From IMG/VR virus record IMGVR_UViG_3300045988_114440, positions 37,704 to 101,703 of that record: a stretch of DNA of 64,000 bases; one strand, 5' to 3'. This document shows positions 1,944 to 51,124 of the stretch, in pieces; position 1 is the first letter of the stretch, and every line of letters starts with the position of its first letter. This DNA comes from a virus. Both the position numbers and the translations under genes were made by a program. The notes below the pieces were generated by a model. The model worked only from the letters and a program-made list of their open reading frames with translations. It was not told the DNA's origin and did no database searches.

Positions 1944-2918
1944 ATGGCTTTTAGAGAAAACAGAAGTTTTGGTACAACTTATTATCTGTATATTAATTCA
2001 GATGGTAACTTGTATGAAAAAAGTAACGAACCAAAAGAAGGTTTTGTTCAGCACATAAATCCTAATAGCGGTCAGCCGGCGGGATATTGGAAAGAGTATT
2101 ATAATGGAGTAGTTGGATACATCAACTACATCGGGTTAAAGTCAAGCACTTTCTCTAATGGAAATACTGTTACTAATTTCCTTATCGTATTAAAAGATTA
2201 CGAGCTTAATGAAAACTATTGTATTTCCATACCTCTCGTCAATCAAAAAGGAAATATCAAGGGCTTTGTTAAGAGCTTCGTAAAATACTACGAAAACATC
2301 GATTTCAGTCGTGAAATTTATTTCAATGTCTTTAAGAAGAAGAAAGATGATGAGTTTGGATCTTCGGAACTTATTATCGCGTATGCCGGAGTAGACGGAG
2401 AAAAAGATCAGCTTGTTGAACGTTTTTATAAAAAGGGCGTAAATGGCTGGCCTGATCCTGTTGAGGTTACAGGATTTGATGGTAAGAAAAGCCTTGATTA
2501 TTCAGCTCAAAACAACTTTACTTATCAGAAGATTACTGAATATTCAAATAGATTCAATGCTTCTATTAAAGACATAAGAGCTGGAATAATGGCTAAATTA
2601 GGTTTAGGAAGTAATACTCAGCAAGAGCCTACAGCTCCTCAGACTTATACCCAGCAGACGGCTGCTCCTCAACAGGTTCAACAACCTCAGTCTGTTCCGA
2701 GTGCTATTCCGTATCAGAATTACCAACAACCTGCTCAACAGCCAGCACAGTATCAGGCACCGGCTTATACGCCACAGCCGACTGCTCAGCCTGCTGCACC
2801 TGCCCCGGCACCTACTACAAGGAGCACCAAGCCGCAGCATCAGACGCAGCCGCAGCCGCAGCCGCAAGCACAGATGCCGAACTTCCCTCCTATGGAAGAA
2901 GATGACCTTCCATTTTAA
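1944..2918 (+). CDS. single-stranded DNA-binding protein-like, with Q/P-rich linker and acidic C-terminal tip
   Basis: C-terminus ...PNFPPMEEDDLPF mirrors the bacterial SSB DDDIPF tail; long Gln/Pro/Ala low-complexity linker precedes it. Confidence 0.5.
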   Translation: MAFRENRSFGTTYYLYINSDGNLYEKSNEPKEGFVQHINPNSGQPAGYWKEYYNGVVGYINYIGLKSSTFSNGNTVTNFLIVLKDYELNENYCISIPLVNQKGNIKGFVKSFVKYYENIDFSREIYFNVFKKKKDDEFGSSELIIAYAGVDGEKDQLVERFYKKGVNGWPDPVEVTGFDGKKSLDYSAQNNFTYQKITEYSNRFNASIKDIRAGIMAKLGLGSNTQQEPTAPQTYTQQTAAPQQVQQPQSVPSAIPYQNYQQPAQQPAQYQAPAYTPQPTAQPAAPAPAPTTRSTKPQHQTQPQPQPQAQMPNFPPMEEDDLPF

Positions 2919-2927
2919 TATAAACAT

Positions 2928-2960
2928 CAGCCCAGGAGAATAACATCTCTTGGGCTTTTA
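2928..2960 (+). terminator. candidate intrinsic terminator after the SSB-like gene
   Basis: Hairpin agcccagg...cttgggc followed by TTTT. Confidence 0.4.
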
Positions 2961-2964
2961 AAGA

Positions 2965-3222
2965 TTGTGTAGAATGACAGTAGAAATAGTTACAAGATTT
3001 CCCCTTATTAAGCTTCGTAGGAAAGTGACAGAAGAAAGGATTATGGCGAAGCATGGGGATAAATTATGTATGATCTACTCAGAAACCAGAGAAAAATATA
3101 AGCAAGGAGATGAGTGGGTCGATGATCCTAATGATGCAGACATAAGTACTTTTCGTGAGTGTTATGAATCAACGAAGGACATAAAAAAAGAAGGTATTGT
3201 TTATTGTACTATAAAAATATGA
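2965..3222 (+). CDS. hypothetical small protein
   Basis: ORF in the gene-dense + block; start uncertain (internal Met possible). Confidence 0.3.
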   Translation: MCRMTVEIVTRFPLIKLRRKVTEERIMAKHGDKLCMIYSETREKYKQGDEWVDDPNDADISTFRECYESTKDIKKEGIVYCTIKI

Positions 3223-3875
3223 TCATGGACAAGTTAGAAGATATTGAAAGACTTCTTTCTGAAAAAGAAGATAATAAGAAGGATACTGTTTCTGAAAAGA
3301 ACAACAAACATAAAAAAGAGGATAAGGTCGTTAATAAAATACCTGAATCGTATTTGACTCCAGGGTATCAGAAGACTGTTCAGGTAGGTATTAAGAAGCT
3401 GTATCCTGATGTCGTGGCACCTGAATACAAACATGATGGTGATGCCTGTTGTGATATTCGTGCATATAGAGTAGTGAAGATGATGAATGACATGGGAGTA
3501 GAAATAGATGTTCCTTCCGATTTTGAATCAATTACCTTATATCAAGGTTATTCTGTTAGAATCGGAACAGGATTCAAGTTGAATATACCAGAAGGTTGGT
3601 GTGTGAATGTGGAAGGAAGATCTGGATTCTCTTTTGACGAGGGAGTGGTAGTTACTAACGCTCCTGGCAAATGCGAATTTATCTACAAAGGAGAGTATAT
3701 GGTTAATCTTACTAAAATCAATAAAAAACCGACCGTAATCCGCAAAAACGATCGAATAGCTCAGATGGAAATCGTTCCACAATACAAAATGGTATTGGAA
3801 GAAGTAACAGATATTGAGGTAGAAGACGGGAATGAACGTGGAGAAAAAGGTCTTGGTAGTTCTGGAGTTAAGTAA
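3204..3875 (+). CDS. dut: dUTP diphosphatase (dUTPase) with about 60-aa N-terminal extension
   Basis: dUTPase motifs: DACCDIRA (motif 1-like), GRSGFS (motif 2), RIAQMEIV (motif 4), RGEKGLGSSG (motif 5). Confidence 0.8.
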   Translation: MYYKNMIMDKLEDIERLLSEKEDNKKDTVSEKNNKHKKEDKVVNKIPESYLTPGYQKTVQVGIKKLYPDVVAPEYKHDGDACCDIRAYRVVKMMNDMGVEIDVPSDFESITLYQGYSVRIGTGFKLNIPEGWCVNVEGRSGFSFDEGVVVTNAPGKCEFIYKGEYMVNLTKINKKPTVIRKNDRIAQMEIVPQYKMVLEEVTDIEVEDGNERGEKGLGSSGVK

Positions 3876-3893
3876 TGTTTAAATATTTTTAAA

Positions 3894-4652
3894 ATGAGCA
3901 TGTTAGGTTTTACATTCATCACAGACAGCAAGCTGTCAATGTACAGGGAGAAAGCTATTAAATCCGAAAATCTTGCAAAAGAAATTGAGGAAATGCAGGA
4001 TAAGGCCGCTTCTTACAAGGAAAGGCTTTCCGAACTCAAGTCAGATATCGCTTCAAAGGATAAAGAGATTTTATCTGTTGGCAAAGATCTTTCTGAGTCT
4101 AAGGAAAAGATTGACGCCTTGAAGGAAAATCAGAAAAAGTTGATAAAAAGCGTCAAGAAGAAAACGGAAGAACTTGATGCTGTCAATGTCGATCTTGACA
4201 AAGCCAGGTCTGATCTTGATGAGGCTAATTACAAAATCAGAAACTTGGAAGAAAAGAAAAACAGTATCTCATCTGAATTAAAAAAGAAATCAAATGCATT
4301 GATTGAAGCCAGGATCAGAATAGGAGATTTGGAAAACGAGGTTTCGGTTGGGTCCAAAACAATACAAGAGTTAGAATCGAAGCTGAAATTAATGCAAGTA
4401 GAATTAAGAGGCTACCAAATAGGTATAATCGGGAAAGATAAAAACAATGTCGCTGAGCCGGAATTGGATAAAGATGAGGAGTCAGATAAGGATGTGGCAG
4501 AATCGGAGAAATTTGATGAAAATAAGGAAGTTAAATACAATACGCTTCTTTATACAGATGTGATTCAGGAAGAAGCAGGTGACATTGTGGAGCCCGAAAA
4601 CGAAGCTGAACGAGTAAAAGACACTAAAAAGAAGAAGAAAAAAAAGAAGTAG
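3894..4652 (+). CDS. coiled-coil protein with poly-Lys C-terminus
   Basis: Heptad-like K/E/L-rich sequence; ends KKKKKKKK. Confidence 0.5.
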   Translation: MSMLGFTFITDSKLSMYREKAIKSENLAKEIEEMQDKAASYKERLSELKSDIASKDKEILSVGKDLSESKEKIDALKENQKKLIKSVKKKTEELDAVNVDLDKARSDLDEANYKIRNLEEKKNSISSELKKKSNALIEARIRIGDLENEVSVGSKTIQELESKLKLMQVELRGYQIGIIGKDKNNVAEPELDKDEESDKDVAESEKFDENKEVKYNTLLYTDVIQEEAGDIVEPENEAERVKDTKKKKKKKK

Positions 4653-4797
4653 GTATTTTAATCCTTTTTATATTTTAATGTTTGCCATATTATGGGTTAG
4701 TACTTAACTTTGCGTTGAGAGAGTTTTTAGGATAATTATTGGTTAAAAATTTAGCTGTTATATGCAGGCGTCTGTGAAGGCTCCTGCATATTTTTAA

Positions 4798-4870
4798 GGT
4801 CCTGTAGCTTAGTGGTGAAAGCAGGCGGCTCATAACCGCAAGATCGTGGGTTCAAATCCCTCTGGGACCA
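4798..4870 (+). tRNA. tRNA-Met/fMet (anticodon CAT; Ile-lysidine not excluded)
   Basis: Cloverleaf by eye: acceptor ggtcctg/tgggacc, D-stem gctt/aagc, anticodon loop cuCAUaa, T-loop ttcaaat; CCA not encoded. Confidence 0.7.
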
Positions 4871-4871
4871 C

Positions 4872-4942
4872 TGTCCAATGGTGTAGTGGTAGCACAACAG
4901 ATTTTGGTTCTGTTAGCGGAGGTTCGAATCCTCCTTGGATAA
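4872..4942 (+). tRNA. tRNA-Gln (anticodon TTG)
   Basis: Acceptor tgtccaa/ttggata, anticodon stem acaga/tctgt with loop ttTTGgt, T-arm ggagg-ttcgaat-cctcc; begins 1 nt after the previous tRNA. Confidence 0.7.
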
Positions 4943-5012
4943 CGGTACATATTTTGTGTAAAGTGTTAATTATCTAAGTGTTTGTGGTGTGTGAACATAG
5001 CAAACATTAAAT

Positions 5013-5084
5013 GGCCCATTAGTTTAACGGATAAAACCCTTGAGTCCTAATCAAAAGTTGCCTGTTCGATTCAGGCATGGGCTA
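5013..5084 (+). tRNA. tRNA-Arg (anticodon CCT)
   Basis: Acceptor ggcccat/atgggct, D-stem gttt/aaac, anticodon loop gtCCTaa, T-arm gcctg-ttcgatt-caggc. Confidence 0.6.
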
Positions 5085-5087
5085 CAT

Positions 5088-5159
5088 GGCTTGTTGGATG
5101 AGTGGTTTAGTCAGGGATCTGCAAAATCTCGTAGGGCGGTTCGATCCCGCCACAAGCCT
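5088..5159 (+). tRNA. tRNA-Cys (anticodon GCA)
   Basis: Perfect 7-bp acceptor ggcttgt/acaagcc, anticodon stem gggat/atctc with loop ctGCAaa, T-arm ggcgg-ttcgatc-ccgcc. Confidence 0.65.
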
Positions 5160-5177
5160 CTAAAAAAAAGTAAGACA

Positions 5178-5870
5178 ATGAACTACCCAGAGCAACAAAT
5201 GCTTAAGATCCTTAATAGGGATCTGTTAAGTAATCCGATGTATGTTATTAACAATCTTCATATATATGATTGGGAATCTGACTTCCTGGCCATAACAAGA
5301 TCATTGTACGCTTATGAAGTAGAGGTCAAGATGTCTAAACAAGATTTCTTTAACGACTTCAAAAAGGATAAAAAACATAAGGTTCTTAAAGACGGCATTA
5401 TTAAGGTAGGTGGTGTCATAAGCTATCCTCCAAACTATTTCTACTACGCCTGTCCGCCTAATATGATTGACGTAAGTGAAGTTCCGTCTTATGCTGGACT
5501 GATTTATGTCGATGTTAGTAAAAATAGGAAGAACATCGTTAAGGCCGCACCTTTAATTCATAGACAGAAGTTTGATGTAGTGGGCAGGAAACTGGTGGAT
5601 AAGTTTTACTACAATATGCTTACTTGGAAGAAAAGAGCTATTTCAAACGTGTATGCTGACCCAGCCAAGGAAAGAGAGAAGGGCGTGCGTGCCGGAGCTG
5701 AGGCTGTAAGGAAGTCGGCCTGGGATGCGTTCAGGGCGCAGTGCCCGCACATCGCTTTTCCCTATGGAAAAGAATTTCCGATGTGTGACGATCATGAACA
5801 AGATCATCCCATGAGAGACTGCATACTTCAGTGTGAAAAAGGTAGAATATTTAAAAACGTATTAAAATGA
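5178..5870 (+). CDS. hypothetical protein; D...EVEVK is a possible PD-(D/E)XK-like motif
   Basis: The track ORF 5040-5870 overlaps two tRNAs, so the start was moved to ATG 5178 (MNYPEQQ...); DWESDFLAITRSLYAYEVEVK resembles a D-x(n)-E-x-K nuclease core. Confidence 0.45.
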   Translation: MNYPEQQMLKILNRDLLSNPMYVINNLHIYDWESDFLAITRSLYAYEVEVKMSKQDFFNDFKKDKKHKVLKDGIIKVGGVISYPPNYFYYACPPNMIDVSEVPSYAGLIYVDVSKNRKNIVKAAPLIHRQKFDVVGRKLVDKFYYNMLTWKKRAISNVYADPAKEREKGVRAGAEAVRKSAWDAFRAQCPHIAFPYGKEFPMCDDHEQDHPMRDCILQCEKGRIFKNVLK

Positions 5871-6136
5871 GCACCCCACGTGAATTAAGCAGGATAGCTA
5901 ATAAAATAGCCAGTAAGATGACTGATGATGGATGGGTCAGCCCCGGTAGAAAGAATCTTGTCTCTGATAAGAAGGTCATGGAATTAATAGATTTGATCTT
6001 TAATGAAATATGGAGGGAATTAGATGACGGGAAAAGAGTCCATATCATAAAACAGATGATTTTTAAAAAGATTTTTGTCAGTAGGCAAAAAGATAAATAC
6101 TACATACAATGCATAGAAAAAAGGGACGCCAAATAG
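5867..6136 (+). CDS. hypothetical protein
   Basis: ORF overlapping the previous stop (ATGA); co-oriented. Confidence 0.4.
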   Translation: MSTPRELSRIANKIASKMTDDGWVSPGRKNLVSDKKVMELIDLIFNEIWRELDDGKRVHIIKQMIFKKIFVSRQKDKYYIQCIEKRDAK

Positions 6137-6167
6137 ACGCCCCTTTTCTTTTTTCTGTAAGTAATTG

Positions 6168-6824
6168 TTATTTCATTACTTTCCTTACCAACTTAGAAAC
6201 AGCTTGAGTGATAGTCCACCTGATGTTTGCATTAACGTTGATAGTCTGAGGAGTACCGTTTGCATCCAAGTTAATTACCTCCTTGTCTATTTCCAAGAAC
6301 GGATCACTTGCTGTCTGGGTAATAACCGTATTAGCCGTCTGACCTCCGGCGGCCGTCACCTTAAGAGTATTTACCAGATCGTTTACATCAGTGTTCGCAG
6401 CAATATCGGAGAATACGATACTGAAAGCAAAGGCTCCTGTTGCACCAGGGTCGTCGGCGATAACAGCGCCGTTGTTGGTAGCCTTACCTGCCGCCTGATA
6501 GGAGGTAGGTATTTCCAACGTCAGAGGATGAGTTTCGTCCGGAGTTAAGGAGAACGTTAATTTAGTTGAGTTACTTGTACCGTTGATTGTTACAGTACCA
6601 CCTCCTTTCCCTACAGATGCAGTAGGATCTATTTTTACGAACTCAGCTACCGGAGATTGGTTGATGGTAGCACTTTTCTTAACACCCCCTGATTCGGCAC
6701 CAAATTCTACTTGTTGCGTGCGTTGTACACGACCTTCGTATTTTTCACCTGATACGGTAACCGCCTGATCACCATCACCTGATCCCGGATTGAAGGTTAC
6801 AAAACCTATTTTCAATTCTGCCAT
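6168..6824 (-). CDS. hypothetical T/N/G/A-rich beta-type protein encoded opposite to the surrounding genes
   Basis: 218-aa ORF on the - strand with an AT-rich upstream region; protein-like composition; converges on the 5867-6136 gene. Confidence 0.55.
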   Translation of the reverse strand: MAELKIGFVTFNPGSGDGDQAVTVSGEKYEGRVQRTQQVEFGAESGGVKKSATINQSPVAEFVKIDPTASVGKGGGTVTINGTSNSTKLTFSLTPDETHPLTLEIPTSYQAAGKATNNGAVIADDPGATGAFAFSIVFSDIAANTDVNDLVNTLKVTAAGGQTANTVITQTASDPFLEIDKEVINLDANGTPQTINVNANIRWTITQAVSKLVRKVMK

Positions 6825-7069
6825 GACATAAATAATTTTGTAGTTAATTGATATCTTGACAAATATAGGTTTATTATACGTAAGTCTTATTATTCATATT
6901 TATAAATTAAAAGCTATATTTGACCAAAATAAGATAATTATGAGAAGAAGATTTTTTAACAAAATAAGGGGGGGGGGAGCTCCCTACTAATAATTTTATA
7001 GTTTTTGATAAATCAGTACAAAATCCTGCCAATATAACAATAAGCGAAAACAGTGATTTTTTAAATCGT

Positions 7070-8056
7070 TTGATTACCAGTGGCTTCTATAGAGTTCTTT
7101 GCAAGAGCGCTATGGGAGGAGGAGAGGTTTTTGTATGTAGATTAAAAGATAGCGACAGCAACCTGTATCTTGATGGCAGTCCGGCTGTTCTTACCGGACA
7201 AGAAGGTGATGTGATGGTCGTTTTCCTTGAATTTTGGTATAAGTGGTATAAGGTGGATGACAATAGATTCCTTTATCATTTTGCTGATCATAATATCGAT
7301 GGCACTTACATTCATGTTCCGAAATCTCTTGTTGGAGCATATAAAGGATATGTGTCTTTAAATAAACTATATAGCTGGAGTGATGTTAAGCCTTCAACAA
7401 GCATATCATTTAATGATTTTAGAAGATATGCAAAAGCGCGTGGCACCGGGTATCAGATGATAGATTTTCAACAACATTGCGTGATTGCTATGATGTTGTA
7501 TGCTAAGTATAAAACACGCGACCTTCAAGGCGTATTGGGAGCCGGTGGTGCAACCTATGATCCGACTACAACAACTGGAAGCAGCAACGCAACCGGTGGT
7601 GCGGATACTAAAAACGAAAGTTCAAAGTACGTTTGCGGCTTAGGTTTGGAAGGGGTTTTTGGTGGCATTAACGAATGGGTGGAAGGCGTAGAAATTAACA
7701 ACCATGTTTGGACAATCACCGACCAGGACGGTTCTACACGAAAAGTAAATGCTGGAAAATCAAGCGGATATATAACCAATGTCGCAGCCGAAAATGGGCC
7801 TTTTTTCGATATGGTGCCAACAAATGTCGGCGGTAGCGATTCCACGCATTATTCAGATTACTATAGTCGGACATCGAACAATTCCATTGTTTTAGCGCGC
7901 TCTTGTGACAGTTCGAGTTCGTTTGGCGGTGTGGCGTTTGCGTATGCGTCTTACGTTGTTTCGAGCACGCATTCGTACTCCGGTTCTCGTCTCGCTTTCC
8001 GTGGAACCATATCCGAAGTGAGTATGGAGCAGTTTAAAAAATTACCTGCATTATAA
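7070..8056 (+). CDS. hypothetical protein with Gly/Ser/Thr-rich low-complexity segments
   Basis: Track ORF begins at TTG 7070 (internal ATG possible); segments GAGGATYDPTTTTGSSNATGGADTKNESS and SSSSFGGVAFAYASYVVSS. Confidence 0.45.
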   Translation: MITSGFYRVLCKSAMGGGEVFVCRLKDSDSNLYLDGSPAVLTGQEGDVMVVFLEFWYKWYKVDDNRFLYHFADHNIDGTYIHVPKSLVGAYKGYVSLNKLYSWSDVKPSTSISFNDFRRYAKARGTGYQMIDFQQHCVIAMMLYAKYKTRDLQGVLGAGGATYDPTTTTGSSNATGGADTKNESSKYVCGLGLEGVFGGINEWVEGVEINNHVWTITDQDGSTRKVNAGKSSGYITNVAAENGPFFDMVPTNVGGSDSTHYSDYYSRTSNNSIVLARSCDSSSSFGGVAFAYASYVVSSTHSYSGSRLAFRGTISEVSMEQFKKLPAL

Positions 8057-8136
8057 TATCATATTTTAACTGTTTTTAAATCGTATTGTTGATATTATTA
8101 TGTATGTTTGCAATATCAATATAAAATATTATAACC

Positions 8137-8547
8137 ATGAAAGTAGATTTTTTTAACAGTAAGGATTTTTTAGGATCTAAAACTAAAGAGAGTAAGATCC
8201 GGAAGTTGTCAATCAGCAAAAGTAAGATAATGACTATCTCTGTCGATAATTTGAATTGGATGGGGGTAACGGATGCGGTTGTTATCGGCTTAGAAGAAGG
8301 GAAGATATTTGAAGGAGTTGAAAATACGGTCTTTTATCTGGCTGCTTCTGATGTTGAAGACGAGAGATCGTTTAAGGTAAATAACCTTGGTGTAAAATAC
8401 AAGAGGATTTACTTAAAAGACTTGCTCGATTATCTTGGATGGGATATAGGAGAAAATTCTTATGCTGTGTATGATATTATAAAAGAAGATAGTAATCTAT
8501 TCCGTCTTCAGTTTAGGGTAATAAAAAAGAGTAGGAGTGAAAAATGA
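8137..8547 (+). CDS. hypothetical protein
   Basis: ORF preceded by a TAtgTTTG (-7-like) element. Confidence 0.45.
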   Translation: MKVDFFNSKDFLGSKTKESKIRKLSISKSKIMTISVDNLNWMGVTDAVVIGLEEGKIFEGVENTVFYLAASDVEDERSFKVNNLGVKYKRIYLKDLLDYLGWDIGENSYAVYDIIKEDSNLFRLQFRVIKKSRSEK

Positions 8548-9104
8548 TGAGCAATATAGATATTAAAAACAAAAGAATACTGCTATTCGATTTTGACGGG
8601 ACGCTTATAGAAACCGCTTCTGGGAATACGTTCGCTACAGACTTGACAGATATGAGGATTAAGATGGATGTGGTGAATAAGGCTCTTGACCTCATGCAGG
8701 AGAACGGTGTTAAGGTGTTTGCTATCGTAAGCAATCAAGGAGGAGTAGAAGCTGGGTTTGTTTCTGGAGCTGATATTGAAGCTAAGATAGAATACGTACT
8801 GAGGTCCGTACATGATCTGGCGGTAAAACGTGGCATAAGAGGCGTCCTATATGAAAAAAGGTTGTGTTATTCCAATGACAAACAAGATCCGATGAGGAAG
8901 CCTAACACGGGCATGATTGATGATATTCTTATGAAGTGTAAAGACACGGTAATGCGTGGTATGAACTTTAGTCAACTTAAGGGATGTTCGTTGATGGTCG
9001 GAGACGCCAGTGGTCTGCCAGGGCAGTTCTCTGATTCGGATAAGGTATGTGCTGAGAATGCCGGTATTGACTATATGGACGTTATCACGTTTGTTGGTAA
9101 ATAA
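8544..9104 (+). CDS. HAD-superfamily phosphatase (HisB-N/GmhB/PNK-3'-phosphatase-like)
   Basis: Motif I LLFDFDGTL (DxDGT), motif II VSNQGG, motif III/IV K...MVGDASG..D. Confidence 0.7.
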   Translation: MMSNIDIKNKRILLFDFDGTLIETASGNTFATDLTDMRIKMDVVNKALDLMQENGVKVFAIVSNQGGVEAGFVSGADIEAKIEYVLRSVHDLAVKRGIRGVLYEKRLCYSNDKQDPMRKPNTGMIDDILMKCKDTVMRGMNFSQLKGCSLMVGDASGLPGQFSDSDKVCAENAGIDYMDVITFVGK

Positions 9105-9116
9105 TTTTAGGTAGTT

Positions 9117-10088
9117 ATGTGCAATATTATGAAGGTGAATAAAACGGCGATAGTTTATCATAAATCGGATTTAGATGGCGTTGTGTCGGCAGCCATCGCA
9201 ACCATGTACGAAAACAGTAAAAACAAGGATGTTATTTATATCCCGTATTCGTATGAAGATGATGTAAAGAAAGTTATTGATAAAGTAGATGAATGTGGGG
9301 TTGTTTACGTTCTTGACGTGTCTTTCGGAGCCGATTCTAAAACGATTTTCAAGAAATGGCTTGATGAAGGAAAGAGCCTGATGTGGATAGATCATCACAA
9401 GGGAATTATCGAAGATAGTAAGACATGGGGGTTCGTAGTTCCAGGGTTGAGGAGAGTCGGTACCGGTGCGTGCGCACTGGCCTCGGACCTGCTGATGGGG
9501 AAGGTGCCGGCGATAGTCAGGTGCTTATCAGACTACGATGTGTGGAATAAAGAATCCGGTTTAGGCTGGGATACGGTAGTAGCCGTCCAGTATGCCTTGA
9601 GATCAAAAATAAGACTCAATGTGTTAATAGCATTGTCGTATTTGTATGACCATTTTAAAGAAAATATGAAGGACAATGAGGTGGATTTAATTTTCTATGA
9701 TCTCGCTAAAGAAGGACGTGCTATAATTAATTACATGGCCGGCAAAAACGAACAAGAGGTAAGTGCGTGCTCGTTCGAAGCTTACGTAGACGAGGTTAAG
9801 GTCGTGGCGATGAATACTACAGAATTTAGTTCCAAAGTATTTGATTCTCTTACACCTGACTGGTTAGATGGTAGAAAAATTAAAGCCCTGATGCCATTTT
9901 GTATCATGCCAGGTGGTAAAGTCCGGTTCTCTCTTTATGAATGCGTAGAAGACAGTGCAGATTGCTGTGAGGTAAGTAAGAGATTTGGTGGTGGAGGACA
10001 TGCTGGTGCTGCTGGATTCGTTATAGACGTATCAAGTGACCAGTTTAAGTACTTCCTTGAAAACCACAAACTTACTTCAATTAAATAA
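9117..10088 (+). CDS. DHH-DHHA1 family phosphoesterase (NrnA/RecJ-like)
   Basis: DHH motifs YHKSDLDGVVSAAI, VLDVSFG, MWIDHHK; DHHA1 motif GGGGHAGAAGF near the C-terminus. Confidence 0.8.
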   Translation: MCNIMKVNKTAIVYHKSDLDGVVSAAIATMYENSKNKDVIYIPYSYEDDVKKVIDKVDECGVVYVLDVSFGADSKTIFKKWLDEGKSLMWIDHHKGIIEDSKTWGFVVPGLRRVGTGACALASDLLMGKVPAIVRCLSDYDVWNKESGLGWDTVVAVQYALRSKIRLNVLIALSYLYDHFKENMKDNEVDLIFYDLAKEGRAIINYMAGKNEQEVSACSFEAYVDEVKVVAMNTTEFSSKVFDSLTPDWLDGRKIKALMPFCIMPGGKVRFSLYECVEDSADCCEVSKRFGGGGHAGAAGFVIDVSSDQFKYFLENHKLTSIK

Positions 10089-10109
10089 ATCAATGAGGTA
10101 GTGTTTTAA

Positions 10110-10143
10110 ATAGGATTGGTTGCCATCAATCCTATTTTTTTTG
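10110..10143 (+). terminator. rho-independent terminator
   Basis: 9-bp stem ataggattg/caatcctat with 8-nt loop, followed by T8. Confidence 0.7.
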
Positions 10144-10170
10144 TGTTGAGCTGGAAGAGGTGGGTGAGAT

Positions 10171-10309
10171 AATGTTTGTGTGAGGAATGGAAATGATGCT
10201 GAAGGGCATATGTGGTGTGAGAGATGAAAAAGGTTTGTGTAATAAGGGAGAGGATAAAATGTTTATATAATGGGAGAGAGATAAAAAAGGTTTGTGTAAT
10301 GGGAGAGAG
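10171..10309. repeat. purine-rich direct repeats (GTTTGTGTAAT[AG][AG]GGGAGAG twice, plus a related GTTTGTGTGAGG copy)
   Basis: Repeat copies at about 10226-10252 and 10283-10309; a third partial copy near 10174. Confidence 0.5.
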
Positions 10310-10338
10310 GGGGTACCTATCACGAACCTCCCGCCCCC

Positions 10339-10396
10339 GAAACGCGTTTTCTCCCCCCACACCCCCTTCGCTGGAAAACCGGAAACGCGTTTTTAC
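10339..10396. promoter_or_regulatory. two copies of the perfect palindrome AAACGCGTTT flanked by C-tracts (candidate dimeric protein-binding sites)
   Basis: gaaacgcgtttt at about 10339-10350 and again at about 10383-10394; CCCCCC/CCCCC runs between them. Confidence 0.4.
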
Positions 10397-10789
10397 CTTA
10401 AACCTACAAACTCGCTGATTATCAACATTTTATTTAAATTATTGATAATCAACGTATTATTGTAACCTATTGATTATAAGCCATTTAAATAAACATATAT
10501 CCTACATATTAATGTACGCGTATAATACCGCTCTTGTGTATTTTGTAACTTGCTAATAATCAGATAATAGAATCGAAATTAATACAAGTTAACAAAAAAA
10601 AGATAGTATATATATTTGTAGTAACAATAAAAGTAGTATATTTGCAATGTGTTAAAGCGATAACACATGCTGACATGATGATCCTATATAGTGTACCCGT
10701 TGGGCAAACTATATCTGTATCTGTAATTGCCCGCGTTGTGGGTTATTAAGTTGAATATCATTTGTTTAACAATTAAAATATATTGGATT

Positions 10790-11329
10790 ATGATTACAAA
10801 GAAAAACGTTAACAAACTACAAAACACTGTTATTAAAGAAAATGCTTCTAATTTGGTAGGCGCGGTAAAATTGTATAACGCTTTATTTTCGAATGGAGCT
10901 GACTTGAAAGCAATTTGTAAGACGTTGGAAATACCAACCGAATATGCTGTAAAGGTTGCGGCACTCGCAAAGGACAAAAAACGGTTGGTTGCCGTGTGTA
11001 GCCAAATGTTACCTAAAGTAGGTGATACCTTTGTTAAGTTTTCTTTATACTCTAAAGTATATAAGGATAACAAGGTGGACAAGGAAAAAGGAATTGAGGC
11101 AAAAACGGCTGACTGGTGCGCTGATAATGTGGTTTATGGCGGGGAATATAAATCTTTCGGTTTTTCAACCGCTGAAACATTGGAGACAAAAAAAAGCACA
11201 AAGTGGCTTGTTAAAGAAACGGACGAGTATAAAGCTACTTATGTAGCCGTTAAGATCAAGTCTTATTCAATTCGTACCGTTGCAAAGTGTGTGAGTGAGT
11301 ATTTGGCGCACGAAAGCAACCAGCAGTAA
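10790..11329 (+). CDS. hypothetical protein
   Basis: Track ORF 10727-11329 trimmed to ATG 10790 (MITKKNV...); preceded by a TTTAACAATTAAAAT motif. Confidence 0.45.
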   Translation: MITKKNVNKLQNTVIKENASNLVGAVKLYNALFSNGADLKAICKTLEIPTEYAVKVAALAKDKKRLVAVCSQMLPKVGDTFVKFSLYSKVYKDNKVDKEKGIEAKTADWCADNVVYGGEYKSFGFSTAETLETKKSTKWLVKETDEYKATYVAVKIKSYSIRTVAKCVSEYLAHESNQQ

Positions 11330-11800
11330 AAAAAGGTTAGGCGCGTACCGTTAAACGCGTCTGTACGCCGTTGTCAGTGGGTGCACGTCCCGCGTATGCT
11401 TTAGACTGAAGCTGACAAAACAGAGAGTTATTTTACATATTGGAGATAGATATACCTTTGCCCTTGCCGTTGGCAATTAAAGGGCTGGTATTGCTGCATG
11501 AACTGCACTAAATAAGTGTGGTTTATGTTAGGTATGTTAGTACAGTTTGGAAAACATACCGTTGTACGCGGTTTATCTCCAGACCGAAACGTGTCTTACT
11601 TGCCTACACGTAAAATAGGACAAGGCTGTAGATTAAATTACAGGGTATAAACATGTAGCCTACCATGTAGGAGCGTGATATATCAAAACGCAAGGACACA
11701 ATCGCCTTTATTTGTGGCTAAGTTGTGTAGCAGACGGAAAATATAATAACAACATAGTACGGGCCTGTACACAAGAACTACGTACTAATTACGGGCTGTT

Positions 11801-11863
11801 GGTTGTAGCATAAAATTCGTATAGAATAGGAATGCGTGTTCGGTTCGATTCCGGAGCAACCTC
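11801..11863 (+). ncRNA. tRNA-like minihelix element (acceptor-like stem plus canonical T-arm)
   Basis: ttcgg-TTCGATT-ccgga T-arm; 5' ggttgt pairs with 3' gcaacc; no anticodon arm found by eye. Confidence 0.3.
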
Positions 11864-11886
11864 TAAATTATAAACAATATAATAAC

Positions 11887-12057
11887 ATGGGAAAGAAAGC
11901 AATGATCAACGCTTTAACTGAAGCGTTCAATAAATCTAAAAACAGTTGCGTAAAAATAACATTGCGTAACTATATCGAGACGGTTGAAGCACTAAGCGAA
12001 AGTGAGTACAAAGAGGCGGAAGGTTTCTATATTGAAGCACTTAACCGCTGGGGTTAA
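11887..12057 (+). CDS. hypothetical small protein (56 aa)
   Basis: ATG at 11887 (MGKKAMINAL...); the track ORF began at an upstream GTG that overlaps the tRNA-like element. Confidence 0.35.
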   Translation: MGKKAMINALTEAFNKSKNSCVKITLRNYIETVEALSESEYKEAEGFYIEALNRWG

Positions 12058-50557: not shown

Positions 50558-51124
50558 ATGGAAAAAATGGACAATAATACTAAAAACATCCTTTATCCAA
50601 AAGGATCTATTTTTCAAACACTGAAAGATGATAAGATAGATAAAAACACTATAATATACAAAGGATCTTTAGTGACTTCAGCAACAAACATAAAAGAAAA
50701 TGACAAGTTTGCTGAAGTTTATTACAATGGAGGCGCAATTATTATAGAAACAGACATTATGGAACTTATTCGTGTAGGAGATCCAGAAAAAAGTACTTCA
50801 ATAAAATCAGTGAAAAATGACATCATTGACGACAAACTACGATGGGATTTGCTTCCGATGGAAGAGATTGAAGACATTGTAAGAGTCTATCATGCCGGAG
50901 CCAAGAAATATGGATCTAATAATTGGCAGAATCTTGACAACGGATTTGAACGGTATCGAGCTGCAATGTTTCGACACCTGATGGAATACATGAAAGGAGA
51001 AAGAGTGGATTCCGATACAGGATGTTTTCATCTTGCACAATGTGCATGGAACTGCATAGCTATGCTGTGGTATGACAAGCATGGAAAAGGGTTGATACCA
51101 TTAAATAAGGAGGAAAAGAAATGA
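50558..51124 (+). CDS. MazG-like dATP/dGTP pyrophosphohydrolase-like protein
   Basis: RWDLLPMEEIEDIVRVYHAGAKKYGSNNW...RHLMEY...DSDTGCFHLAQCAWNCIAMLWYD; family assignment recalled from memory. Confidence 0.45.
   Translation: MEKMDNNTKNILYPKGSIFQTLKDDKIDKNTIIYKGSLVTSATNIKENDKFAEVYYNGGAIIIETDIMELIRVGDPEKSTSIKSVKNDIIDDKLRWDLLPMEEIEDIVRVYHAGAKKYGSNNWQNLDNGFERYRAAMFRHLMEYMKGERVDSDTGCFHLAQCAWNCIAMLWYDKHGKGLIPLNKEEKK

Follow-up and report, generated by a model that had tools for sequence, protein, structure and literature searches.

A DHH-DHHA1 phosphoesterase of a mostly viral clade encoded in a small operon with a PNKP-type HAD phosphatase in an epsilon crAss-like phage

Known DHH enzymes and the phage locus

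A gene for a stand-alone DHH-DHHA1 phosphoesterase and, directly upstream of it, a gene for a HAD hydrolase lie in a 64,000-nucleotide stretch of viral DNA (IMG/VR record IMGVR_UViG_3300045988_114440, positions 37,704 to 101,703), here called the window, whose first letter is position 1 in the coordinates below unless another record or contig is named. Several cellular DHH enzymes offer points of comparison. It has been reported that archaeal RecJ2, an exonuclease of 3'→5' polarity, acts preferentially on single-stranded RNA and is inhibited by a 3'-terminal phosphate (PMC5615345). RecJ2 of M. jannaschii (MJ0831) has the same DHH-DHHA1 core and the same catalytic motifs as the phage protein, but the two are only 14% identical, and RecJ2 has about 430 amino acids (aa) with inserted domains, compared to 318 aa in the compact phage protein. 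Similarly, the NrnB enzymes tested so far all act 3'→5', none of them cuts cyclic di-AMP (c-di-AMP), and the described NrnB clades come from Bacillota and Campylobacterota, not from phages (PMC12709177). NrnB (COG2404; short clades B and C) is comparable to the phage protein, which also lacks an RxRxR motif, in that it is stand-alone, of similar size and built with a helical inter-domain linker; however, the profile of the phage clade matches the H. pylori DHH structure 6mtz at just about 1e-8. The NrnA-like enzymes (Pde2, CnpB, DhhP, TmPDE; COG0618) agree with the phage protein in size, in having two domains and in the GGGH motif, but the phage clade has (R/K)xSLY in place of RxRxR, and its motif IV reads YDVW, whereas that of NrnA has the form DTGxF. 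In the DHHA1 domain of NrnA, RxRxR grips the 5'-phosphate of the substrate (PMC9779919).

Two further DHH enzymes are of interest in relation to immune signalling. NrN of B. fragilis degrades SAM-AMP, a conjugate of S-adenosyl methionine and AMP that serves as the messenger of Bacteroides type III-B systems (PMC10600005). NrN belongs to the DHH superfamily and comes from the relevant host clade, Bacteroidia, but it has about 260 aa and GGGIN where the phage protein has GGGH; the best tblastn match between the two had E = 7.7, with an NrN query recovered with frameshifts by optical character recognition (OCR) from the synthetic gene in the paper's supplement. The membrane-associated DHH-DHHA1 ring nuclease of Sulfolobus is likewise a member of the superfamily, but the phage protein has no membrane anchor. 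As for the partner enzyme, the phosphatase domain of mammalian PNKP and the phage HAD protein share all four HAD motifs, and the phage protein gives a full-length PNK3P match and aligns with the mouse enzyme, but it lacks the kinase and FHA domains, and most phage alleles carry a C-terminal domain of 105 aa. To our knowledge, a 3'-phosphatase paired with a DHH nuclease has not been described before.

The window belongs to an epsilon crAss-like phage. Positions 8000–10400 are 91% identical to phage crAssE-Sib (GenBank OR575929.1, where it is listed as csAssE-Sib), a 151-kb human-gut genome, and the record of that phage shows the same gene order around the HAD and DHH genes and the small gene before them, hyp136. 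It has been reported that the epsilon crAss-like group encodes no DNA polymerase and that its hosts, as judged by clustered regularly interspaced short palindromic repeats (CRISPR) spacers, are Bacteroides, Parabacteroides and Porphyromonas (PMC11054128). The lineage is abundant in the human gut, and more than 140 viral contigs have copies of the DHH or HAD gene that are 86–99% identical to those of the window. Scans of viral contigs with the DHH and HAD profiles yielded mostly such close relatives; the gene contexts in the lineage were counted in 78 contigs found via HAD and in 62 further contigs found via DHH. The dUTPase, HAD and DHH genes are already annotated in crAssE-Sib, the last of them as NrnA, and the crAssE-Sib paper does not discuss them. 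What is new here is the correct operon, the identity of the HAD protein as PNKP-type, the finding that the DHH protein belongs to a large viral clade apart from NrnA, GdpP and NrN, and a testable mechanism that combines a phosphatase with an exonuclease.

The DHH-DHHA1 protein

The DHH gene (9132..10088, + strand) lies in an open reading frame (ORF) found at 9117–10088; its true start is likely ATG 9132, as annotated in crAssE-Sib, which gives a predicted metal-dependent exonuclease of 318 aa, as against 323 aa from ATG 9117. In the 323-aa numbering, the motifs are DLD (18–20), DHH (92–94) and GGGH (292–295). An earlier note on this DNA had listed the motifs as DHH, DHH and GGGH; the family and the GGGH stand, but there is one DHH tripeptide, not two. 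Motifs I–IV, the GGGH and a two-domain fold place the protein in the DHH-DHHA1 superfamily (subfamily 1), PHROG 4771 "DHH phosphoesterase" is matched at 4.3e-26, and the Pfam domain scores are slightly under gathering. The AlphaFold model has the DHH and DHHA1 domains (predicted local distance difference test, pLDDT, 92.8; predicted template modelling score, pTM, 0.88), is globular from residue 4 and contains a 33-residue helix (181–213) that runs into the DHHA1 domain. The active site is intact: H10, D13, D15, D62, D87-H88-H89, D136 and G287-G289-H290 are invariant both in an alignment of 66 homologues of 29–94% identity and in 29 distinct alleles of the lineage. These 29 alleles have zero internal stops and a ratio of nonsynonymous to synonymous substitution (dN/dS) of 0.12, that is, the gene is under purifying selection.

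The earlier note had suggested that profiles and structure be used to decide between the NrnA, GdpP and RecJ subfamilies, and the protein falls into none of them. In the structure comparison, the top neighbour of the model is archaeal RecJ2, followed by TmPDE with a score of 14.3, DhhP with 14.1, H. pylori 6mtz with 14.0 and RecJ-Cdc45 with 13.9; S. aureus NrnA (12.5), bacterial RecJ (11.9) and the catalytic domain of GdpP (9.0) are lower, and the Foldseek E-values are alike for all DHH subfamilies. The DHH family profile matches DHH proteins in the PDB at just 1e-9 to 1e-5; against the 355-aa H. pylori protein 6mtz, which we take to be the NrnB of that species, the value is 7.2e-09, and the match extends over the entire DHH domain with its motif IV, D-[VI]-W. 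Among the 66 members, the NCBIfam matches are weak and far under the cut-offs, with 28 to RecJ, 25 to archaeal RecJ, 21 to NrnA and one to a GdpP-like model. The window protein itself reaches 20–21 bits against TIGR00644 (RecJ; cut-off 396.9), over residues 3–95 only, and does not match the NCBIfam NrnA model NF053633, to which 21 of the 66 members match weakly (best 3.4e-06). In place of the RxRxR of NrnA, the window protein reads V-R-F-S-L-Y, and the clade consensus is (R/K)265-x-S267-L-Y269, with the tyrosine in 61 of the 66. Three homologues about 30% identical to the window protein are named NrnB/COG2404 by IMG.

Among the classes that were rejected is the GdpP-type c-di-AMP phosphodiesterase, which has PAS and degenerate GGDEF domains and a membrane anchor; these are not found in the window protein, which has no membrane segment (maximum Kyte-Doolittle mean over 19 residues, 1.35). 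Another is bacterial RecJ, since TIGR00644 lies far under its cut-off and the 318-aa protein has neither an OB fold nor an extra domain. We conclude that the DHH protein is one of a group of compact, stand-alone DHH-DHHA1 enzymes that form a clade of their own, which is mostly viral and stands nearest to the archaeal-RecJ and NrnB side of the superfamily.

This clade is large. At E<1e-30, 4,624 clusters (50% identity) among 1.84 billion representatives match the DHH family profile, and relatives occur in at least 413 viral contigs. In BFVD, relatives at a template modelling (TM) score of about 0.7 come from the jumbo phages PaBG, Y3, PhiEaH1, RP12, ME3 and AR9, the AR9 protein being labelled "NrnB", and from the giant eukaryotic viruses Klosneuvirus, Marseillevirus and Pithovirus. 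By tblastn, 19 of 50,697 deposited phage genomes have a match: crAssE-Sib, Prevotella Lak megaphages and three uncultured phage records. The statement that such a protein is less usual in phages is thus true of deposited genomes but not of viral contigs at large. A scan of bacterial genomes with the DHH profile gave 19 weak matches only, all in metagenome-assembled genomes.

The HAD phosphatase

The gene at 8544..9104 (+ strand; ORF at 8544–9104) encodes a HAD-IIIA hydrolase of 186 aa and of the PNKP polynucleotide 3'-phosphatase type. PF08645 (PNK3P) is matched over residues 12–178, i.e., full length, at 3.7e-22 and 79.2 bits (cut-off 22), and TIGR01662 (HAD-IIIA) at 53.3 bits, which is above its cut-off of 44.6; TIGR01664 (DNA 3'-phosphatase) gives 1.1e-20 and 74.2 bits, under the equivalog cut-off of 107.65, and the bifunctional model TIGR01663, which includes a kinase domain, gives 48.9 against 502.8; the protein has no kinase domain. 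Mouse PNKP is aligned at 7.8e-07, homologues carry the IMG name "DNA 3'-phosphatase", and the motifs are DFDGT (residue 16), SNQ (63), KP (119) and GD...DSD (153–166). On these sequence matches, the protein is classified as a PNKP-type polynucleotide 3'-phosphatase and not as a generic phosphatase. The family and the DxDGT, SNQ and GD..D motifs named in the earlier note therefore hold, but its description as an ordinary pool-sanitising enzyme does not, since this is a 3'-end phosphatase type with a conserved, co-transcribed DHH partner. Two allele types, just 66% identical, occur in the lineage; most homologues have 292 aa (e.g., L001, 9488–10363), and the window allele is without their uncharacterised C-terminal extension of about 105 aa. 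The dN/dS of the gene is 0.18.

Operon structure and conserved linkage

The dUTPase, HAD and DHH genes had been described as a trio, but they do not form one unit: the dUTPase lies 4.7 kb upstream of HAD, set apart by nine features that include four tRNAs and an opposite-strand gene. The actual unit consists of hyp136 (8137–8547), HAD (8544–9104) and DHH-DHHA1 (9132–10088). Its first gene, hyp136 (8137..8547, + strand), is an ORF of 136 aa whose stop overlaps the start codon of HAD (ATGATG). It has no match in Pfam, PHROG, NCBIfam, PADLOC or PDB; it is found upstream of HAD in every contig of the lineage except L056, has two alleles about 62% identical, and shows a dN/dS of 0.13. At the other end, 20 nucleotides past the DHH stop, the unit is closed by an intrinsic-terminator-like hairpin (10108..10145, + strand) with a 13-bp stem, a 4-nucleotide loop and T8, whose free energy is -13.5 kcal/mol (z = -3.7) and whose stem is kept in 85 of 141 related contigs. 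The strong terminator and the discrete transcription unit claimed earlier are thus borne out, except that the unit has a third gene, hyp136. Upstream, 27 nucleotides before hyp136, TATGTTTG (8103..8110, + strand), read from the sequence as TAnnTTTG, is a candidate Bacteroidetes-type -7 promoter box, for which the evidence is weak; the full Bacteroidetes -33/-7 promoter pattern is not enriched in the window, with 5 occurrences found and 3.9 expected.

The adjacency of the two enzymes is conserved. A full-length DHH gene follows HAD in 77 of the 78 contigs found via HAD and in nearly all of the 62 found via DHH, and HAD is also directly upstream of DHH in the distant relatives L005 and L009 (35% DHH identity). 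The surroundings are mosaic within the lineage, with two HAD alleles, two hyp136 alleles and a tail-like gene that is present or absent. In P0006, HAD and DHH are fused in frame; in P0016, HAD is fused to a DHH protein without its first ~90 residues and hence without all metal-binding motifs. Elsewhere, P0171 is a fusion of DHH-DHHA1 with Nudix, and in P0182 the DHH gene is split by a NUMOD4/HNH homing endonuclease.

In some relatives, among them L058 (3748–4974), L060 (3781–4974), L067 and L081, a gene of about 400 aa is located between HAD and DHH; a RuvC-like motif, an HNH motif and an RRxRR helix rich in arginine mark it as IscB-like and mobile. Another protein met around the DHH gene has 130 aa and an HExxH motif (HEASH). 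It comes after DHH in crAssE-Sib and in some 40% of the lineage contigs, lies directly before DHH in L002 (5585–5986) and two genes upstream of HAD in L005 (4328–4687) and L009 (3346–3702), and the L001 copy is at 11282–11674; it has no library match and is not present in the window. The HExxH protein as a universal partner of DHH was rejected, since it is found with DHH only in crAssE-Sib-type genomes, L002, L005 and L009. With PADLOC, none of hyp136, HAD, DHH and the HExxH protein matched a defence family.

In other phages, the DHH gene is part of conserved replication and nucleotide-metabolism modules, not of variable islands. At 17 loci of another gut-phage lineage, the genes run from a PD-(D/E)XK nuclease through a conserved gene and an SF2 helicase to DHH, after which come two small genes, a MazZ-like dATP/dGTP diphosphohydrolase, acyl carrier protein and more genes; in L010, the DHH gene comes after DNA polymerase A; and in L003, it is directly before a MazZ-like gene. 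The window also has a MazZ-like dATP/dGTP diphosphohydrolase gene, at 50558–51124, whose product is 74% identical to the crAssE-Sib protein, and the window region codes for RuvC, a sliding clamp, SSB and an MmcB-like repair protein.

Proposed function

We propose that hyp136, HAD and DHH form a small operon for the processing of nucleic-acid ends, a reading to which we give an even chance: HAD would unblock 3'-phosphates, and the DHH exonuclease would degrade the fragments. The 3'-phosphate ends, produced by metal-independent RNases, toxins, lyases or damage, would be stripped of their phosphate by HAD on DNA or RNA fragments; DHH-DHHA1, as a two-metal phosphodiesterase, would then digest the unblocked single-stranded oligo- or polynucleotides to mononucleotides, most likely in the 3'→5' direction, as NrnB and archaeal RecJ2 do. 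In effect, the phage, which has no DNA polymerase of its own, would clear away and recycle fragments and tidy up intermediates of replication or recombination. That RecJ2 is blocked by a 3'-phosphate fits a 3'-phosphatase as partner of the phage DHH enzyme, and the two-step pathway is consistent with the lack of a 5'-phosphate clamp, with the conserved and co-transcribed 3'-phosphatase and with the replication and nucleotide-metabolism context. The link between HAD and DHH is drawn from the stop-start overlap of hyp136 and HAD, the single terminator after DHH, the conserved adjacency and the P0006 fusion. What the sequences show is the families, the intact active sites, the purifying selection, the operon structure and the conserved adjacency; the type of substrate (RNA or DNA), the direction of attack and the coupling between HAD and DHH are inferred. 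Scavenging of nanoRNAs or oligonucleotides, which the earlier note had offered as its second option, is the direction in which the evidence points. If the proposal is true, it would provide a working function for a very large uncharacterised viral DHH-DHHA1 clade of gut phages, jumbo phages and giant viruses, which databases label inconsistently as NrnA, NrnB, phosphodiesterase or exopolyphosphatase, and its simple pairing of two enzymes could account for the way in which a crAss-like phage without a polymerase recycles or clears fragments of nucleic acid.

Several points weigh against this proposal. Full-text literature searches turned up neither experimental work on phage DHH enzymes nor any biochemistry for the viral clade. 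By sequence and structure, the DHH protein is about equally far from RecJ, archaeal RecJ and NrnA, so that polarity and substrate are extrapolations, and DHH enzymes with near-identical active sites hydrolyse signalling nucleotides. Natural N-terminal deletions of DHH, such as that in P0016, mean that the gene is dispensable at least sometimes, and the IscB-like gene between HAD and DHH means that contiguity or tight coupling is not required. In addition, the DHH lineages of other phages have no HAD within 5 kb of DHH, and the HAD partner is thus specific to the lineage.

The earlier note had named an anti-signalling factor as plausible. In this reading, DHH would destroy an immune messenger of the host by hydrolysis and thereby dampen abortive infection; candidate messengers are cyclic oligoadenylates, the cyclic di- or trinucleotides of cyclic-oligonucleotide-based antiphage signalling systems (CBASS), c-di-AMP or its product pApA, and the SAM-AMP of the Bacteroides type III-B CRISPR/CorA system. 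The idea is not new, because Iyer et al. (2021) had already put forward the same role for the DHH enzymes of jumbo phages (PMC7824862). It agrees with the fact that cellular DHH-DHHA1 enzymes cleave such messengers, SAM-AMP being degraded by B. fragilis NrN (PMC10600005), and with the predicted Bacteroides, Parabacteroides and Porphyromonas hosts of epsilon crAss-like phages (PMC11054128); the mosaic region around the DHH gene, a Tad2-like gene 2 kb downstream of the DHH homologue in L002 and the occasional natural deletions would suit an accessory gene of this kind. However, similarity to B. fragilis NrN is not detectable (E = 7.7, with the OCR-recovered query), the NrnB enzymes tested left c-di-AMP uncut (PMC12709177), and the protein is far from GdpP. 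The presence of DHH in nearly every contig of the lineage and its fixed place in the replication modules of others are unlike the patchy occurrence of anti-defence genes; giant eukaryotic viruses, for which these bacterial systems are irrelevant, have structural relatives of the protein; and the gene next to it that is conserved codes for a polynucleotide 3'-phosphatase, an enzyme without an obvious part in the destruction of messengers. No positive evidence was found for an anti-signalling role, the protein having no similarity to NrN and no RxRxR and its gene lying in conserved replication modules; since the specificity of DHH enzymes cannot be read from their sequence, the role keeps some probability, and we regard it as unlikely. 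A narrower version, in which DHH would be an anti-CRISPR or anti-signalling nuclease tuned to Bacteroidia and independent of host NrN, with the 3'-phosphatase finishing off its products, is very unlikely. If this version were true, DHH would be the first viral counter-defence enzyme of the DHH family, in one of the most abundant groups of gut phages; the broader anti-signalling role, if true, would make it a new class of such viral enzymes in Bacteroides phages.

Other explanations keep the enzymes on nucleic acids or small nucleotides. DHH could be a RecJ-like 5'→3' exonuclease on single-stranded DNA that works with phage helicases in end resection, recombination or removal of primers and flaps, while HAD mends 3'-phosphate DNA ends like PNKP. 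Weak matches to the RecJ and archaeal RecJ models are mostly commoner than those to NrnA (28, 25 and 17 versus 21 of 66 members); the model's helix 181–213 joins the DHH and DHHA1 domains in what appears to us to resemble the RecJ core; DHH is found directly after the SF2 helicase with its PD-(D/E)XK nuclease in the other gut-phage lineage and after DNA polymerase A in L010; the window region has RuvC, sliding clamp, SSB and the MmcB-like repair protein; and epsilon crAss-like phages do without a DNA polymerase of their own (PMC11054128). We nevertheless hold this explanation to be unlikely: TIGR00644 gives 20 bits against a cut-off of 396.9, the protein has no OB fold or other DNA-binding extension and 318 aa versus the 550–750 of RecJ, no residues that would clamp a 5'-phosphate are evident, and the closest structure is the RNA-preferring 3'→5' RecJ2, not the 5'→3' RecJ1 or GAN type (PMC5615345). 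Healing or quality control of RNA 3' ends, in particular of tRNA, is another unlikely explanation, in which DHH would open or trim damaged ends and HAD would remove the 3'-phosphate, giving back substrates for CCA addition or decay, countering ribonuclease toxins of the host. It is suggested by the Ro60-like TROVE protein, the six tRNAs and the poly(A)/CCA-type nucleotidyltransferase of crAssE-Sib, by the four tRNA genes 3 kb upstream, by the assignment of stand-alone HAD 3'-phosphatases of jumbo phages to RNA repair (PMC7824862) and by fusions between DHH-DHHA1 domains and tRNA nucleotidyltransferases (PMC12709177). Two absences weaken it: the annotation of the crAssE-Sib genome includes neither a polynucleotide kinase nor an RNA ligase, and the nucleotidyltransferase has no homologue within the window. 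Moreover, the Ro60 and tRNA-Tyr/Lys genes are far off in the crAssE-Sib genome, and the Ro60, tRNA and nucleotidyltransferase genes have no positional or co-variation link to HAD and DHH. Finally, DHH could be a phosphatase for pAp (3'-phosphoadenosine 5'-phosphate), an inhibitory by-product that arises in sulfur metabolism and when a phosphopantetheinyl group is transferred to the phage acyl carrier protein, and acyl-carrier-protein genes do lie a few genes from DHH in another phage lineage and occur in crAssE-Sib; but the support for this reading is one structural likeness (16% identity), a second 3'-phosphatase encoded in the neighbouring gene would be superfluous, and no gene for sulfur assimilation or phosphopantetheinyl transferase was seen nearby, which makes it the most improbable of all.

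The dUTPase

The dUTPase gene (3225..3875, + strand) belongs to a separate upstream gene block and encodes a trimeric-type enzyme with an N-terminal extension of about 50 aa. An ORF was found at 3204–3875, and the true start is likely ATG 3225 rather than 3204, as annotated in crAssE-Sib. The assignment is based on PF00692 (32.7 bits, cut-off 22), PHROG 135 (6.8e-39) and dUTPases in the PDB (up to 1.4e-16); the NCBIfam equivalog model gives 90.8, which is below its cut-off of 103. Motifs I, II, IV and V are present as GDACCDIRA, GRSG, RIAQ and RGEKGLGSSG. Motif III (about 3666–3695) reads GKCEFIYKGE, in which Glu158 of the 223-aa ORF (codon 3675–3677) replaces the Asp of three solved dUTPases; the canonical form with Asp, G-x-I-D-x-x-Y-x-G-E (GT-ID-xDYRGE in the solved enzymes), is thus not found in the window protein. 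The family named in the earlier note was therefore right, whereas its statement that all five motifs are present is only loosely true. The Glu is common to the closer relatives, and relatives about 44% identical retain I-D. The dN/dS of 0.066 indicates strong purifying selection, and judged from the sequence, a dUTPase with Glu in motif III may have altered catalysis or an added role.

Neighbouring genes and repeats

Between the dUTPase and HAD there are a coiled-coil gene, four tRNAs, the MmcB-like gene, a small gene, an opposite-strand gene (6168–6824), a variable tail-like gene and hyp136. The tRNAs (4798–5160) are Met(CAT), Gln(TTG), Arg(CCT) and Cys(GCA) and separate the dUTPase block from the MmcB-like gene; an Rfam scan of 2800–12000 found nothing beyond these four. 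A mechanical ORF at 5040–5870 overlaps tRNA-Arg and tRNA-Cys; translation probably begins at ATG 5178, where the crAssE-Sib annotation puts the start. In the crAssE-Sib genome, which has six tRNAs, the gene for the Ro60-like protein stands beside tRNA-Tyr and tRNA-Lys, outside the region of the window; the stretches of the crAssE-Sib record concerned in these comparisons of the MazZ-like, nucleotidyltransferase and Ro60-like genes are 137063–137725 and 73091–74725. The tail-like gene (7070–8056; 328 aa; PHROG 14959, 2.6e-45; PHROG 5302, 3.7e-32) is similar to the C-terminal part of proteins of phage tails or of giant structural proteins and sits among replication genes; it is found in about half of the related contigs, and crAssE-Sib is without it.

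Past the terminator, the intergenic region 10208–10493 is rich in repeats and could be a regulatory or origin-like region. It contains two 46-nucleotide direct repeats (10208–10253 and 10265–10310) that are 80% identical, two copies of CCSGAAACGCGTTTT (10336 and 10379), each internally palindromic, and nested inverted repeats around TTGATAATCAA at 10413–10493; a match to the Bacteroidetes-type -33/-7 promoter follows at 10615–10644.

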